A stretch of DNA of 64,000 nucleotides from a virus. Shown here piece by piece: positions 45,540 through 50,544 of this stretch (positions within the stretch are counted from its first letter, which is position 1; each line of letters opens with the position of its first letter). The stretch is taken from positions 1-64,000 of the IMG/VR virus record IMGVR_UViG_3300022723_000177; one strand, 5' to 3'. A program made the position numbers and the translations under genes. The notes below the pieces were generated by a model, which was not told the DNA's origin, did no database searches, and saw only the letters and a list, made by a program, of their open reading frames with translations.

Positions 45540-47732
45540 TTGGCGGCCCGTCTCGCCTCCGGTGGGGCGGGCCGCATTGCTGAAGGACACCAGGTGAATA
45601 GCACCTACCCGACACACGAAGACGTTCTCCGTGTCCTGCACGCCCAGGGCTCGAAGTGGATCACCCTTGAAGTACTCGAGGCACACACGCGGATCGAACG
45701 AGACTGGCTCACAGCGGAAGGGGGCGACGAGACCTACCCCCGTATCGGCTTCAACAACGGTGTCTCCTGGTTCTTCGACAAAGACCGCCGTCCCGACATG
45801 AAGCACGGCTCCGGCAAGCAGAAGACTCACTGCGCTGGGGGCGTGCGCCGCACGCTGCTCGGGGACCTGGAGAAGGACACGCTGATCCTGTTCGAAGGTG
45901 AGCGCGACTGGCTCACGGCGCTGTCGCTCGGGTTCGACAACGCGATCTGCGCAGGCGGGATCCTGAACCTCGACGAGCACCAGTTCCAGCAGCTGGCGCA
46001 GAAAGCCGAGGTCGTGGTGTTCTTCGACAACGATGAGGAGGGGGTGAACGGAGCAAAGATCGTAGCTGCCCGTCTTCAGGACCACGGCTGTCTCGCCGCG
46101 AAGTGGGTCGTGCCGCCGATCGACGGCGACTTCTCCGAGTGGGTCGAGGGCTTCGAGGATGATCCGCGTGGCACTGTGCTGCACCGCATGACGAGCCAGG
46201 CGGAGAGGCTGAAGAAGGCCGACGCGAAGAAGATACTGAACGCCGGGACCAAGGCCAAGAAGAAAGACGACATCGTCGAGCATCCTTCGGATGAGTTCAC
46301 TACCTCGAGCGGCGACCTCGTCACATCCGTCTGGAGGCCGACCGATCCCGAGCACCCTCACCACGTAGACCTCGGAGGCAAGGCGGTGTTCGTGCGCCAC
46401 GACCTGGCCGCGTCCGAGAAGGCCGGGAGCCTGATCGTCGACTACATCAGCCGCTACACCGAGGCCCCAACGGAGACTGATGAGTTCGACGAAGTACCGG
46501 AGATCTACGGAGGTGGTCAGCGCGCGAAGAGCCACGCCCCAGACCGTCCGCCTGTCGTGGTACCTCTTGGAGGCCAGACCGTCAGCGACCGGATCATGGT
46601 ACTGCCGTCCGGGGCTCGCGAGCATGGATCGAGCGAGAAGCTCTGGGATGACGTGGTTGAGCTCATCGAGAAGTACTTCGTCTGTGCCCCGGCATTTGTT
46701 CACGCCATGGCTGCTTACACGTTTCTGACCTACCGCTATCGCGATGCGCGCTTCGAGGTGATCCCGTACCTCAGGGTGATCGGCCAGGCGGGAAGCGGAA
46801 AGACTCGATTCGCCCGCATCATGAAGGAGCTCTGCTTTCGCAGCCTGTTCGTCACGGGTATGCGTTCGCACCACATCTACCGAATCATCACCGGTTTCAA
46901 CGCCGGGGCCACGCTCGTGTTCGAGGAGTTCGACATGGGGACGCGCGGCGAAGAAAAGATGGAGTGGACCCGTATCCTCAACGCCGGGAACCAGTACGGC
47001 GTGAAGATCCCGCGGATGGGCGGCAAGAACTTCAGCGACGTCGAGTACTTCGACATCTTCGGTCCGAAGGTGATCTCGATGCACGAGGAGTTCGATGACG
47101 AGGGCCTGGCGCGTCGCTGCTTCGGAGTCGTGCTCGGGAAGATGGAGGTTCCCAAAGAGAAGTACTTCGCCGCTCTGCCGAACATCTTCTACCAGGAGAC
47201 GGCGATCCTCCGCGAGCGTTTGCTCGGGTGGCGATTCGCCAAGCGTGGGTTGCCTACGCGCACGCTCGGTGAAGAGCTCCAAGCTGGGATCAAGGGCGAG
47301 GTCTGGCAGACGGTGTTCCCGATGCTGGCCATGGTCCCCGCGGCTCGCCCCGAGGCGACAGCCGCGATCCTCGGGCTGGCGCAAAAGAGCCAGGCGCAGA
47401 TGAAGCTGGTGCGCGCCACCTCGCCCGTCGCTCAGGTGCTCGAGTCCACGATCTATGCTCATGACGATGACCGGGGCTGGACCGAGCTCCAGAACGTGCT
47501 CACCGAATTGCAACTGCGGGACCCCAACGCTAGGTGGACCACCCAGAAGGTCAACAAGTGTCTGCGAGAAGCGGGCCTAACCCCGCGCCGCACCATGAAG
47601 AAGATCGGCGAGCACATCTGGGTCGTCGATATTGACGACACCTTTCGTGGCGCCGTGGCCACGTACAAGCTGGAGATCGAGCAGCTCGCTCAAGAGAATG
47701 CGCGGGAGACTGCGCCGCAGGAGATCATGTGA
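45540..47732 (+). CDS. DNA primase (Toprim domain) fused to a P-loop NTPase (D5/VirE-like primase-helicase)
   Basis: Toprim LILFEGERDWLT ... VVVFFDNDEEG (E and DxD). Downstream VIGQAGSGKT Walker A. TTG start at 45540; the start is uncertain. Confidence 0.75.
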   Translation: MAARLASGGAGRIAEGHQVNSTYPTHEDVLRVLHAQGSKWITLEVLEAHTRIERDWLTAEGGDETYPRIGFNNGVSWFFDKDRRPDMKHGSGKQKTHCAGGVRRTLLGDLEKDTLILFEGERDWLTALSLGFDNAICAGGILNLDEHQFQQLAQKAEVVVFFDNDEEGVNGAKIVAARLQDHGCLAAKWVVPPIDGDFSEWVEGFEDDPRGTVLHRMTSQAERLKKADAKKILNAGTKAKKKDDIVEHPSDEFTTSSGDLVTSVWRPTDPEHPHHVDLGGKAVFVRHDLAASEKAGSLIVDYISRYTEAPTETDEFDEVPEIYGGGQRAKSHAPDRPPVVVPLGGQTVSDRIMVLPSGAREHGSSEKLWDDVVELIEKYFVCAPAFVHAMAAYTFLTYRYRDARFEVIPYLRVIGQAGSGKTRFARIMKELCFRSLFVTGMRSHHIYRIITGFNAGATLVFEEFDMGTRGEEKMEWTRILNAGNQYGVKIPRMGGKNFSDVEYFDIFGPKVISMHEEFDDEGLARRCFGVVLGKMEVPKEKYFAALPNIFYQETAILRERLLGWRFAKRGLPTRTLGEELQAGIKGEVWQTVFPMLAMVPAARPEATAAILGLAQKSQAQMKLVRATSPVAQVLESTIYAHDDDRGWTELQNVLTELQLRDPNARWTTQKVNKCLREAGLTPRRTMKKIGEHIWVVDIDDTFRGAVATYKLEIEQLAQENARETAPQEIM

Positions 47733-48718
47733 GCTTCAGGCCCTACATGCATGTGGAGAGGCTTGGCCACCCCGAGGTTGATGGCATCGAGATCGGCACC
47801 GTTCACGTCTTCCCCAAGCTTGACGGCACCAACGCTAGCGTCTGGGTCGAGTACGGCGACGACTCACCAGAGCTCCACGCCGGCTCTAGGCGGCGGCACC
47901 TGACACTCGAGGCGGACAACCACGGGTTTTGTCGGTGGGTCCACGAACAGTCGGCGGATCCGAGCTCACCTCTGCAGAAGCTGGACCAGCGCCATAGTGG
48001 GCGTGACTGGATCCTCTACGGCGAGTGGCTCGTGCCCCACACGATCAAGAAGTACCGCGACGACGCGTGGCGCCAGTTCTATGTGTTCGATGTCTACGAC
48101 CGCCTCTACGATCAGTACATCCCGTTCGAAGAGTATGAGCCTGAGCTCACCTCGGCTGGGCTCAATGTAGTCTACCCTCTCGCGATCGTGACGAACCCCG
48201 ACGACGCTGCGCTTCAGCGCCTGGTCAACCAGAACACCTACCTCATGCTCGACGGGCAGGGCGCCGGCGAGGGCGTGGTGCTCAAGAACTACGACTTTAC
48301 CAACGCGCACGGCCGTCAAACGTGGGCGAAGATCGTTCGCAACGAGTTCAAGGAAGACGCGCGCAAGGCAATGGGTGTCTCCGAGATCGACGGCAAGGAG
48401 CGCATCGAGACCAAGATCGCTCAGACGCTTTGCACTTCGCACTTGATCGACAAGACGCGACTCATGGTAGAGAAGATGGCGTTTGCCCAAAACGTTGATG
48501 GCTACGCCGAGCAGGATCCTGAGGCCTACGAACAGTGGCTCGCCAAGAACCGCGGAACGATCATCCCTCGCCTGCTCCAGACCGTGTTCTACGAGCTCGT
48601 ACGCGAGGAGATCTGGCACATGCTTAAGCTCGAGAAACGGCTGCCCACCATCGACTTCAAGCGTCTCCAGCAGGAGACCACTCTGGCAGTGAAGCGTCAC
48701 TGCTCGGACTTGTTCTGA
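47729..48718 (+). CDS. ATP-dependent polynucleotide ligase, Rnl2-like (RNA ligase or nick-sealing ligase)
   Basis: Motif I FPKLDGTNASVW (KxDGTN, compare T4 Rnl2 KIHGTN). 329 aa, similar to Rnl2 length. Not a classical KxDGxR DNA ligase. Confidence 0.6.
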   Translation: MSFRPYMHVERLGHPEVDGIEIGTVHVFPKLDGTNASVWVEYGDDSPELHAGSRRRHLTLEADNHGFCRWVHEQSADPSSPLQKLDQRHSGRDWILYGEWLVPHTIKKYRDDAWRQFYVFDVYDRLYDQYIPFEEYEPELTSAGLNVVYPLAIVTNPDDAALQRLVNQNTYLMLDGQGAGEGVVLKNYDFTNAHGRQTWAKIVRNEFKEDARKAMGVSEIDGKERIETKIAQTLCTSHLIDKTRLMVEKMAFAQNVDGYAEQDPEAYEQWLAKNRGTIIPRLLQTVFYELVREEIWHMLKLEKRLPTIDFKRLQQETTLAVKRHCSDLF

Positions 48719-48966
48719 TGCTGGTCGTGAAGGTGGAGCTCTGGCCGTTCGGCAACGAGGAGTCCAAGCGCACGCTCGGCACGATGCGGATCTCCAACGA
48801 CGCTACCGGGACAACGACACGCGGGAACTACAACGTCCGCGTCTTCAGCAGGGACGGCCGCGAAACGCACAAGGTGCGGGTCGAAAACTATCCCCGAAAA
48901 GCGCTCAGCGTCTGGGCGCTAGTGTATCAAGCGCTCGTACACTGCAGTTTCAGGAAGAATCTGTGA
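48718..48966 (+). CDS. Hypothetical protein (82 aa)
   Basis: ATGCTG overlap coupling with the upstream ORF. Confidence 0.45.
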   Translation: MLVVKVELWPFGNEESKRTLGTMRISNDATGTTTRGNYNVRVFSRDGRETHKVRVENYPRKALSVWALVYQALVHCSFRKNL

Positions 48967-49346
48967 TGGCCTGGCCGCAGGACGTCACCCGCGCGGATCT
49001 TTCGATCACCTACTACAAGGGCAGCGGCCCGGGTGGGCAGAACAAGAACAAGCGTGACACCGCCTGCAGGATCGTCCACGCGCCTACAGGGTTGTGGGCG
49101 ACCAGCGAGACACACCGCACGCAACCCCAGAACAAGACCGAGGCGTTCCGCCGCCTGGCCAAGAAGCTCGTCCCGATCATGAAGGGCGACAAGAAGGGTC
49201 CGGGGCTTCCGACCGAACGCATCCGCACCTACCACGAGAAGCGGGGCGTGACTGACACCCGGGTTCCTGGGCGAACCTTCGAGTACAAGAGAGTGCTCGA
49301 CGGCGACCTGGACGAAATCCTGAACGAACTGATGGAGGCACGATGA
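48963..49346 (+). CDS. Peptidyl-tRNA hydrolase domain protein (GGQ motif), ArfB/ICT1-like ribosome rescue factor
   Basis: YKGSGPGGQNKNKRDTACRIVHAPTGL...ETHRTQPQNKTEAF matches the class-I release factor GGQ domain (SGPGGQxVNKTDSAVRITHIPTGI...SQHKNK). Stand-alone 127 aa with a basic C-terminal tail, as in ArfB. Confidence 0.75.
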   Translation: MMAWPQDVTRADLSITYYKGSGPGGQNKNKRDTACRIVHAPTGLWATSETHRTQPQNKTEAFRRLAKKLVPIMKGDKKGPGLPTERIRTYHEKRGVTDTRVPGRTFEYKRVLDGDLDEILNELMEAR

Positions 49347-49843
49347 ACCGCAACCCGACTCCCGACGAGATGCTCGCACTGCTCGAGGCTGAAGAGCAGC
49401 TCGAGCCGATCGGCCCCGAGCCTGGCGTGATCGCCGAGCGCGAAGCGCGCGAAGCCCGCGAGGAAGAGGACGCAGCCGGCGGCATGCGCCCGCACACGAA
49501 GGAGAGCGCGGCCGAGCTCGAAGGCGTGGACCAGTTCCTGCCGCAGTTCCATCGCGGCGAGATCCTCAATTGGCGAGGCTGGTTCTTCCAGGTGCTCCAC
49601 CCGTCGAACGCGAATGGGCACATGGTGCTCCAGCCTGTAGGCCCCTCTAAGAAGCTCGTGAAGAGGATCCGACACAAGATCGAGAACCAGACGAAGGGCT
49701 TGGCCAAGGTCGAGACTCGCGATCGCAAGCGCGCCACCCGCAAGATGGCTCGTCAGAAGCGCGCCCTGCGTCGGCATACCAAGCGCGTGGCCGCCCGCCG
49801 CGCGGCGGAGAAGGCCCAAGCAGGCGAGAAGGTGTCGGCGTGA
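49343..49843 (+). CDS. Hypothetical basic protein (166 aa)
   Basis: ATGA-coupled to the ArfB-like gene. Confidence 0.45.
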   Translation: MNRNPTPDEMLALLEAEEQLEPIGPEPGVIAEREAREAREEEDAAGGMRPHTKESAAELEGVDQFLPQFHRGEILNWRGWFFQVLHPSNANGHMVLQPVGPSKKLVKRIRHKIENQTKGLAKVETRDRKRATRKMARQKRALRRHTKRVAARRAAEKAQAGEKVSA

Positions 49844-50544
49844 TGGCGTCGTCTTCGTTGGCAGTGCAGTACCCCGCTGAGTACCGCGTAAAAGGCACGC
49901 TCCAGTCAGTGCAGATCCCTGAGGACGGGCACGGAACCGGGAACATCTGGGACCTCCTCGCGCTCGGCGGTCTGCTGACCAGACACCACCACCAAAAGGC
50001 GGTGCTTGGGTGGGGTGGTGGAACCGTCGCTGCGCTGATTCGCTCGTTCCAGCCGTACTCGGTTTTCGACGCTGTGGAGGTCAACCGAGACGCTATCGAC
50101 GTCGCCTACTCGTGGGGTGTAGACTACCAGCCCCCTGGCCTTTGCCCTACGGACGTCACCGAATGGATCTTCGAGGAGTTCAAAGCGCACCTCCAAAGTG
50201 GCACCAGTCCGAGCTCCAGGCCCTACTCGTTGATCATCGAGGACACGTTCAAAGGCTACGAGAAGCCGGAGGGTTTCCCGGTGCCGAACTACCGAATGCT
50301 TAGCACTTTGACCGACACGCTCGTCGTGAACACGGTCGGTCGCGCGGCGCCGCGGACGCGGGCTATTCTGAAGGATCTCTATCCACGCGTGGTGAAGGTT
50401 GAGCTCGGTGGCCTGCTGAACCGCGTGTTCATCGCATCCACCCTCCGTGAAGAATGTACTGGGAAGGCGCTGCGGGCAGCGGCCTCAAAGCATGGGTGCT
50501 TCCAGCGAATTCTCGCCAACAACGTAAGGATCTCTCTGACATGA
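49840..50544 (+). CDS. Rossmann-fold protein, possibly SAM-dependent methyltransferase or spermidine-synthase-like
   Basis: KAVLGWGGGTVAALI ... DAVEVNRDAIDVA resembles motif I and the post-I acidic residue of class-I methyltransferases. Confidence 0.4.
   Translation: MMASSSLAVQYPAEYRVKGTLQSVQIPEDGHGTGNIWDLLALGGLLTRHHHQKAVLGWGGGTVAALIRSFQPYSVFDAVEVNRDAIDVAYSWGVDYQPPGLCPTDVTEWIFEEFKAHLQSGTSPSSRPYSLIIEDTFKGYEKPEGFPVPNYRMLSTLTDTLVVNTVGRAAPRTRAILKDLYPRVVKVELGGLLNRVFIASTLREECTGKALRAAASKHGCFQRILANNVRISLT

Follow-up and report, generated by a model that had tools for sequence, protein, structure and literature searches.

Proteins that carry a GGQ catalytic domain but that dispense with a stop codon have been described in several forms, and the gene considered here is most readily placed by comparing it with these. 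It is an open reading frame (ORF) of 127 amino acids (aa) at 48963..49346 on the + strand of the window, that is, of a 64,000-nucleotide stretch of viral DNA comprising positions 1 to 64,000 of the IMG/VR record IMGVR_UViG_3300022723_000177. C12orf65 (mtRF-R), a small GGQ protein without a codon reader, is eukaryotic and mitochondrial, acts together with MTRES1 on the split large subunit and is not known to have a remnant of domain 4 of the release factors (RFs) RF1 and RF2. ArfB (YaeJ) and ICT1 are stand-alone GGQ proteins of a size similar to that of the protein described here, and they act without a stop codon, as the latter is presumed to do. ArfB is recognized by three hallmarks: its GGQ domain contains an insertion, termed alpha-i, its linker is disordered, and its C-terminal helix, which is basic, enters the empty mRNA channel; residues R118, L119, K122, K129 and R132 of this tail are required, and the isolated GGQ domain does not bind ribosomes (PMC3950681). 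PrfH is likewise a codon-independent GGQ factor derived from RF1/RF2, in which domain 1 is missing and domain 4 is retained in part; its N-terminal domain (residues 2-98), itself derived from domain 2, reads the colicin-E3-type cut in 16S rRNA, and its gene is genetically linked to that of the RNA ligase RtcB2 (PMC9304027). Among phages, toolkits for RNA repair and ribosome rescue have been described (PMC7824862), and an RF-1-domain gene was recognized by Morgado and Vicente as the core gene in one type of tRNA array of mycobacteria, and connected by them with the rescue of ribosomes (PMC5966550); phage GGQ proteins are not mentioned in two reviews, one of release-factor evolution (PMC6514570) and one of jumbo phages (PMC7824862).

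Here sequence and profile searches, structure prediction and comparisons of genomic context are used to place the window protein among these systems. Judged by its sequence, it consists of RF1/RF2 domain 3, a shortened alpha7/switch-loop segment and a remnant of domain 4. By descent it is a truncated RF1; by architecture it is neither an ArfB/ICT1 protein, nor a PrfH, nor a canonical release factor, because the defining features of each of these were looked for and are missing. The function favored here, with fair rather than high confidence, is that of an RF1/RF2-derived phage mini release factor, which would hydrolyze peptidyl-tRNA on stalled ribosomes independently of stop codons.

Architecture and descent of the phage protein

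An original prediction, made from the letters of the DNA by a model, had read the ORF as a phage-encoded, ArfB-like, stand-alone GGQ release-factor domain. The ORF is real, the peptide quoted for it is correct, and the match to the Pfam RF-1 hidden Markov model (HMM; PF00472) that this reading called for is far beyond chance (E=1.8e-19; 70.2 bits against a cut-off, or gathering threshold, of 35 bits; aa 7-86). With a profile match above threshold and a GGQ tripeptide on the fold's loop, the protein falls within the RF-1 superfamily. Its similarity to RF1 and RF2 continues well past the catalytic domain: the NCBIfam prfA and prfB models match over aa 7-125 with 78.5 and 75.5 bits, respectively (model positions 210-340 and 223-352; cut-offs 400 and 370 bits), and a single-sequence search of the PDB aligns aa 9-125 with residues 194-322 of T. 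maritima RF1 (E=3e-18), the C-terminal block KIRTYNFPQNRVTDHRI...ILDGDLDEIISKLIE of RF1 standing opposite RIRTYHEKRGVTDTRV...VLDGDLDEILNELME of the phage protein.

A family profile, which was built from 44 members and run against solved structures, finds RF1 from end to end (6e-39; profile positions 6-129 against E. coli RF1 216-347), the sole indel being the loss of 8-12 residues from the switch loop and the last part of alpha7 (E. coli RF1 ~293-305). The same profile scores RF1 at 123-136 bits (positions 6-129), RF2 at 113 bits (8-126), PrfH at 72 bits (8-95), C12orf65 at 54 bits (8-85, that is, through alpha7), ArfB at 47 bits (best stretch 10-36, the GGQ loop only) and ICT1 at 35 bits (11-43). 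Domain 3, alpha7 and domain 4 are homologous to, and collinear with, their counterparts in RF1/RF2, and the position-for-position match to the GGQ domain of class-I release factors that had been claimed holds in these alignments.

Compared with RF1 (and, slightly less closely, with RF2), the window protein corresponds to residues ~216-347, including the IRTYN..VTDHR..LDGDLD motif of domain 4, and lacks the ~210 N-terminal residues that make up domain 1 and domain 2, the latter being the codon reader and containing the PxT/SPF motif. The full four-domain architecture of a canonical factor is absent, and a Pfam search of the 127-aa protein found no match to the PCRF domain (PF03462). The description of a stand-alone GGQ domain devoid of a codon-reading domain is borne out, and a protein built in this way is predicted to be unable to read stop codons.

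An AlphaFold2 (AF2) model (mean predicted local distance difference test score, pLDDT, 85.2; predicted template modelling score, pTM, 0.53) agrees with this architecture. It comprises a three-stranded GGQ domain (strands 13-18, 34-39 and 45-48, the GGQ loop and a short helix at 25-30), a long helix (54-75), a linker, two short strands (88-91 and 95-98) and two helices (108-112 and 117-126) ending in an acidic terminus; pLDDT is low at 71-80. The strands and helices of the last part form the domain-4 remnant, the motif of which is IRTYH..VTD.R..LDGDLDEI. In Foldseek searches the best matches are ribosome-bound, open RF1/RF2 (TMq 0.65-0.73, root-mean-square deviation (rmsd) 4-5 Å; for example, 9d7r with TMq 0.72 and rmsd 4.7 Å, and 4v5e with TMq 0.67), and the closed, free forms fit poorly (rmsd 13-16 Å; for 2ihr, 1gqe and 1rq0, 14-16 Å). 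PrfH ranks 46th and ICT1 49th, with ArfB outside the top 50. The tripeptide is predicted to sit between strand 13-18 and helix 25-30, on the loop of a conserved fold that superposes on RF1/RF2 domain 3.

The ArfB part of the original prediction fails against this background. The ArfB model NF006718 scores 33.9 bits against a cut-off of 100 bits and matches aa 8-37 alone; in the single-sequence search the ArfB chains of the PDB reach only E=0.27-0.3, and the profile matches of ArfB and ICT1 are the short ones given above. The tail that was to probe the mRNA channel is not there: the protein as a whole is basic (isoelectric point, pI, 9.8), but its basic stretch lies inside the chain (aa 61-92, net +6), opposite helix alpha7 and the switch loop of RF1 in the alignment, whereas residues 93-127 have a net charge of -1 and the last 20 residues (108-127) one of -3. 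Nor are the other hallmarks found. In place of alpha-i, strands 34-39 and 45-48 are predicted to form a direct, helix-free hairpin; in place of a flexible linker and basic C-terminal helix, a fold is predicted for the last 40 aa, which are homologous to domain 4 of RF1/RF2; and the required ArfB residues R118, L119, K122, K129 and R132 have no counterpart. ArfB/ICT1 membership is rejected on the combined results of the NCBIfam, PDB sequence and profile searches, the structure prediction and the charge distribution.

PrfH membership is rejected as well, the N-terminal recognition domain being missing: the window protein begins 6 residues before the GGQ domain and has no equivalent of the ~100-aa segment with which PrfH recognizes rRNA. 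The prfH model TIGR03072 gives 48.4 bits against a cut-off of 166.65 and is matched at positions 100-166 of 200 only. An operon with RtcB2 is likewise absent, in that the window contains no RtcB and the neighboring ligase belongs to PF09414.

Family, distribution and existing annotation

A search of 5.8 billion proteins yields 375 homologues, the ~60 closest of which are 45-61% identical to the window protein, are 118-163 aa long, match PF00472 only and come from metagenomic contigs of up to 128 kb, on which terminase, portal and replication genes are found as well. The 44 aligned members (40-61% identity) share the N-terminus MxWP and the invariant residues G22, G24, G25, Q26, N29, N57, A61, L65, R88, Y90, V96 and G114; GGQ is invariant in 44 of 44 and, when the GGQ proteins are clustered at 70% identity into 48 clusters (44 of them short-form), it is present in all 48 representatives. 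Conservation in the family alignment is lowest, and variation in length greatest, in the segment formed by alpha7 and the linker. Within IMG/VR, 378 relatives were found by means of two peptide patterns only, the majority of the best 80 being 115-145-aa ORFs. A scan of cellular genomes (one genome per species, bacteria and archaea) gives a different picture: among the matches listed, the best 80 are at most 42% identical, and 78 of these 80 are ordinary RF1/RF2 of 226-393 aa. Judged among the cellular matches listed, the short form appears to be phage-specific.

The alignment of representatives divides into two architectures. In type A, to which the window protein and most of its viral relatives belong, the domain-4 remnant IRTYH..V.DH is retained. 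The C-terminus of type B is short and unrelated; this type includes the proteins of Cluster C mycobacteriophages (Cali gp203) and prophiT49-2 gp135, which diverge past alpha7 and lack the IRTYH..V.D.R motif. The window protein thus resembles the annotated phage RF-1-domain proteins in being a stand-alone GGQ protein of similar length (theirs ~100-135 aa) and fits the phage class as a whole (~100-145 aa, RF-1 being the sole recognizable domain), but the C-terminal region of the annotated mycobacteriophage members is of the other type.

That genes of this kind are rarely annotated, as had been claimed, is only partly true, since as far as a name is concerned they often are. A tblastn search matched 263 phage records, 206 of them from Mycobacterium phages; the rows sampled are labelled "RF-1 (domain) peptide chain release factor", and PHROGs 3122 and 20323, which match the window protein with E=1.2e-15 (at aa 8-67 only) and E=1.9e-9, respectively, are named likewise; the gene type has also been remarked on in the literature (PMC5966550). 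Over aa 7-67 the window protein shares 47-57% identity with the annotated mycobacteriophage proteins. The gene class is already in the databases, in hundreds of phages; what is described here is its type-A subtype, with the domain-4 remnant.

The gene, its neighbors and the loci of its relatives

The features of the gene and its surroundings are given in Table 1. Although the ORF can be read from a GTG at 48963, translation more probably begins at the ATG at 48966, because the family N-terminus M-x-W-P (here M-A-W-P) and a public gene call (P0001; 126 aa, 100% identical to the window protein) agree on it. The start overlaps the stop of ORF82 (TGA, 48964-48966) as TGATG, an arrangement that suggests translational coupling of the GGQ gene to ORF82, and the stop overlaps the start of ORF166 as ATGA. 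The gene forms part of a translationally coupled string in the order Toprim primase, PF09414 ligase, ORF82, GGQ protein, ORF166 and ORF234, with a MazG-like pyrophosphatase further on, and lies within a replication module. A scan of the window and operon region for promoters and terminators gave nothing better than shuffled sequence. An antisense ORF that spans the entire GGQ gene is most likely an artefact of composition, long antisense ORFs being common throughout this window of 63% G+C.

Table 1. Features of the mini release factor gene and of its surroundings (window positions)
Feature	Position	Strand	Description and basis
PF09414 'RNA ligase'-family ATP-dependent ligase	47729..48718	+	329 aa; motif I KLDGTN; one gene upstream of the GGQ gene
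ORF82	48718..48966	+	small basic beta-rich protein; phrog_8231, function unknown; coupled to ligase and GGQ gene
Antisense ORF	48927..49379	-	150 aa; spans the entire GGQ gene
Shine-Dalgarno-like AGGAAG	48952..48957	+	8 nt before ATG 48966; read from the sequence, role inferred
Mini release factor, coding sequence	48966..49346	+	126 aa from ATG 48966; stop TGA 49344-49346
GGQ catalytic domain (RF1/RF2 domain 3)	48981..49121	+	aa 7-53; Pfam match, RF1 alignment, AF2
GGQ tripeptide, G24 G25 Q26	49032..49040	+	GGT GGG CAG; sequence
Helix alpha7 and linker	49122..49223	+	aa 54-75 and aa 76-87; alignments, AF2, charge
Domain-4 remnant	49224..49343	+	aa 88-127; RIRTYHEKRGVTDTRVPGRTFEYKRVLDGDLDEILNELMEAR; aligns to RF1 KIRTYNFPQNRVTDHRI...ILDGDLDEIISKLIE
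ORF166	49343..49843	+	orphan; acidic N-terminus, very basic C-terminal ~60 aa
ORF234	49840..50544	+	glycine-rich LGWGGGTVAALI, then DAVEVN

That the window is phage DNA is confirmed by its terminase, primase, helicase and Pol A genes. The terminase is 29% identical to those of Caudoviricetes, the helicase, primase, ligase and MazG genes have PHROG matches, and a megablast of the region against phage genomes found no match; by its sequence, the window phage seems to have no close sequenced relative.

The ligase, the start of which overlaps the stop of the primase directly before it, matches PF09414 (E=6.7e-19) and, over its full length, the phrog_548 RNA ligase family (E=5.7e-39); no sequence match was found in the PDB. 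Its family is represented in 319 phage records, labelled 'RNA ligase' or 'DNA ligase', including those of Staphylococcus, Listeria and Bacillus Herelleviridae, and a homologue that is 43% identical lies in the replication module of Cellulophaga phage phi19:3, which has no GGQ gene there. The adjacency of the ligase to the GGQ gene is suggestive but weak.

ORF82 has a sole homologue (P0122; 52% identity; locus L174, 8001-8315), which lies away from any GGQ gene, so that ORF82 is rejected as a conserved partner of the GGQ family. That homologue is found in a phage contig near genes for Thg1 and a PNKP-type phosphatase, both of which are tRNA/RNA end-repair genes. The AF2 model of ORF82 (pLDDT 72) has no significant fold match and is unlike RF domain 2; its top, non-significant match is the T7 Gp1.2 dGTPase inhibitor (E=0.22). 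ORF166 finds nothing but itself among the 5.8 billion proteins; no part of the GGQ protein comes as close to the tails with which SmpB, ArfA and ArfB bind RNA or ribosomes as does the basic region of ORF166, KKLVKRIRHK...RKRATRKMARQKRALRRHTKRVAARRAAEK. To the eye, the motifs of ORF234 resemble motifs I/II of Rossmann-fold S-adenosylmethionine (SAM)-dependent methyltransferases or of spermidine-synthase-like enzymes; no Pfam, PHROG or PADLOC model matched it. A permissive Pfam search of ORF82, ORF166, ORF234 and ORF140 gave nothing meaningful, and PADLOC found nothing among the operon proteins.

Among the relatives, tRNA genes occur within 10 kb in 52 of 91 loci fetched (up to 45 per locus) and tmRNA in 6, and, of the 44 short-form clusters, 12 have 5 or more tRNA genes nearby and 12 have one less than 1 kb away, all of these being raw counts. 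The annotated phage RF-1-domain genes (Cali gp203, prophiT49-2 gene 135) often occur with tRNA arrays, tmRNA, Pth or RtcB. In Mycobacterium phage prophiT49-2 (L091; OQ417962, 1-7200) a single array contains a tmRNA, more than 20 tRNA genes, the RF-1-domain gene, an RtcB-like ligase and a peptidyl-tRNA hydrolase (Pth), and constitutes a compact translation-maintenance island.

Protein-coding neighbors are more varied. The immediate neighbors in 7 loci of the close family share no similarity. A Pfam census, which covered 300 ORFs lying within 4 kb in 38 de-replicated loci, includes RNA_ligase and TROVE (2 each), RtcB, HAD_PNKP, Peptide deformylase, PhoH, PIN, QueC and SpoU (1 each), the rest being mostly genes of replication and nucleotide metabolism. 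Iterative HMMs for Rnl, RtcB, Ro60 and Pth gave only sporadic matches in the 91 loci, with a ligase of the window type in 2 of them. In L002 a PF09414 ligase and Ro60 lie 2-4 kb from the GGQ gene of a close relative. Ro60/TROVE, a protein of RNA quality control, is encoded on phage contigs within 10 kb of the GGQ gene in L002 (9148-10521), L084 (7510-8931), L088 (1-170) and L014. Ligase candidates picked by motif in L024 and L086 were negative in a Pfam scan; that in L086 (7662-8273), a 204-aa ORF 1.7 kb upstream of a close family member, carries the motifs KLDGSN and EGVVGK, which are ligase/nucleotidyltransferase-like and akin to KLDGTN of the window, and has no Pfam match at E<=0.001. In L085 (10881-12097), the locus of a close relative, three annotated tandem pentapeptide-repeat proteins, which might be DNA mimics or anti-defence proteins, follow directly downstream of the GGQ gene; the census contains four pentapeptide ORFs.

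Proposed function, alternatives and significance

In the mechanism proposed, the protein would enter the vacant ribosomal A site, place its GGQ in the peptidyl-transferase centre, as do RF1 and RF2, and hydrolyze peptidyl-tRNA with no stop codon being read; ribosomes stalled during infection--for example, by truncated mRNA or by the depletion of tRNA or its cleavage by host defences--would in this way be recycled. Binding or sensing near the decoding centre, h44, H69 and S12 would be supplied by the basic alpha7 connector and the domain-4 remnant, which would replace the tail of ArfB; the homologous parts of RF1/RF2 and PrfH sit near h44, H69 and S12 (PMC9304027). In the window phage the gene would be expressed together with those of replication and nucleotide metabolism. 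Of the role originally predicted, namely the rescue of ribosomes that stall during infection by an ArfB route, the route has to be given up, but the role itself is plausible because relatives occur in tRNA arrays with tmRNA, RtcB and Pth genes, and the protein probably does free stalled ribosomes during infection.

Several considerations weigh against this mechanism. Activity would have to rest on the alpha7/domain-4 part or on a further partner, because the isolated GGQ domain of ArfB fails to bind ribosomes (PMC3950681); and the domain-4 remnant may not reach the decoding centre as it does in RF1, because the connector is 8-12 residues shorter than that of RF1 and is variable in length. An unregulated, codon-independent release factor could be toxic, so that some specificity must exist. 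Some of the genomic context weighs against it as well. The association with tRNA arrays is one of raw counts; the census of 38 loci revealed no recurrent protein-coding neighbor; the adjacent ligase may be a replication enzyme, because the labels DNA ligase and RNA ligase are about equally frequent in its family, which is located in replication modules; and the 64-kb window itself, unlike many of the relatives' loci, contains no tRNA, tmRNA or other Rfam family (at the gathering threshold) and no Pnkp, RtcB, Ro60 or Pth. A literature search found no experimental study of any phage RF-1-domain protein.

Two alternatives, each unlikely and to about the same degree, survive best. The first is a two-step repair like that of PrfH and RtcB, in which the GGQ protein would free ribosomes halted by a cut that a ribotoxin of the host or of a competitor had made in rRNA or tRNA and a neighboring ligase would reseal the RNA; this would be a form of rescue in which the substrate is defined. 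The PrfH-RtcB2 pair provides the precedent (PMC9304027), and the window ligase lies one gene upstream in the same coupled string; moreover, RtcB, a non-homologous RNA ligase, adjoins the RF-1 gene of prophiT49-2, L002 has its ligase and Ro60 nearby, and the only homologue of ORF82 lies close to end-repair genes. This linkage is, however, sporadic (2 loci by HMM; in the census, RNA_ligase 2 and RtcB 1 of 300 ORFs), the ligase family is about equally often labelled DNA ligase and occurs in replication modules, the end-healing enzyme Pnkp is not in the window, and the protein is without the N-terminal domain to which PrfH owes its specificity for rRNA.

The second is that the protein acts after splitting, on 50S-peptidyl-tRNA, in the manner of mtRF-R, where no sensor of the decoding centre would be needed. 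Such a role would accord with the absence of a module for reading codons or the mRNA channel and with the finding that C12orf65 outscores both ArfB and ICT1 over a longer alignment (aa 8-85), and a connector that varies in length makes a fixed distance between the peptidyl-transferase and decoding centres less likely. What speaks against it is the conserved domain-4 remnant, which is specific to RF1/RF2 and has no counterpart in C12orf65, together with the resemblance of the AF2 model to RF1/RF2 bound to the 70S ribosome; nor did Pfam searches of the neighbors reveal a partner like MTRES1 or RqcP.

Less probable again is a manipulation of translation, by which the phage would either impose premature termination on host ribosomes (that is, shut-off) or compete with host RF1/RF2 for the A site and so affect termination and read-through. 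Loss of domain 2 predicts codon-independent binding to the A site, the gene is apparently co-expressed with early or middle genes, and no regulatory or sensing module is present, all of which would suit such a role. An invariant GGQ nevertheless speaks against a purely inhibitory decoy, the nearby tRNA arrays, tmRNA and Pth point to the support rather than the blocking of translation, and the window ORFs are ordinary under the standard code and show no sign of stop-codon recoding. An ArfB-type factor with a basic tail probing the empty mRNA channel is very improbable: its stand-alone GGQ, similar size (127 versus 140 aa), pI and basic internal stretch are outweighed by the failure of the ArfB model, a profile match confined to positions 10-36, the missing alpha-i and a folded, acidic C-terminus homologous to RF1/RF2 domain 4, so that the architecture already contradicts it. 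Least credible is a decaying, functionless fragment of a captured host prfA, for although the protein corresponds to the C-terminal third of RF1, its length, MxWP start, GGQ and domain-4 motifs are preserved in dozens of homologues that are 40-61% identical, relatives are widespread in viral contigs, and the gene has a ribosome-binding site of its own and is translationally coupled.

To return to the mini release factor as favored here, a bolder form of this proposal can be put forward only tentatively: type-A proteins might constitute a mechanistically new class of rescue factor, in which the switch-loop region and the domain-4 remnant, at the decoding centre, H69 and h44, would recognize ribosomes that have stalled or been damaged. 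Recognition of this kind would differ from that by the mRNA-channel tail of ArfB, by an adaptor (ArfA, BrfA) and by the domain-2-derived rRNA reader of PrfH. Deployed alongside tRNA arrays, tmRNA and RNA ligases, such factors would serve as a phage counter-defence against immunity that cleaves tRNA, mRNA or rRNA, and the pairing with the upstream ligase in the window would be an analogue of PrfH-RtcB.

The main yield at present is a correction of nuance in the annotation of an already labelled gene class, which is of the RF1 type rather than of the ArfB type. If the protein is an active, codon-independent release factor, then it would be the smallest RF1-derived rescue factor known and a viral addition to the repertoire of ArfA, ArfB, PrfH and tmRNA. 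It would also imply that the loss of domain 2 and of the switch loop yields a constitutively open release factor, which bears on how codon reading is coupled to catalysis in class-I factors. The tRNA arrays of phages would, moreover, gain a functional partner against host defences that attack translation, and the gene class may use a mode of ribosome recognition not yet described.

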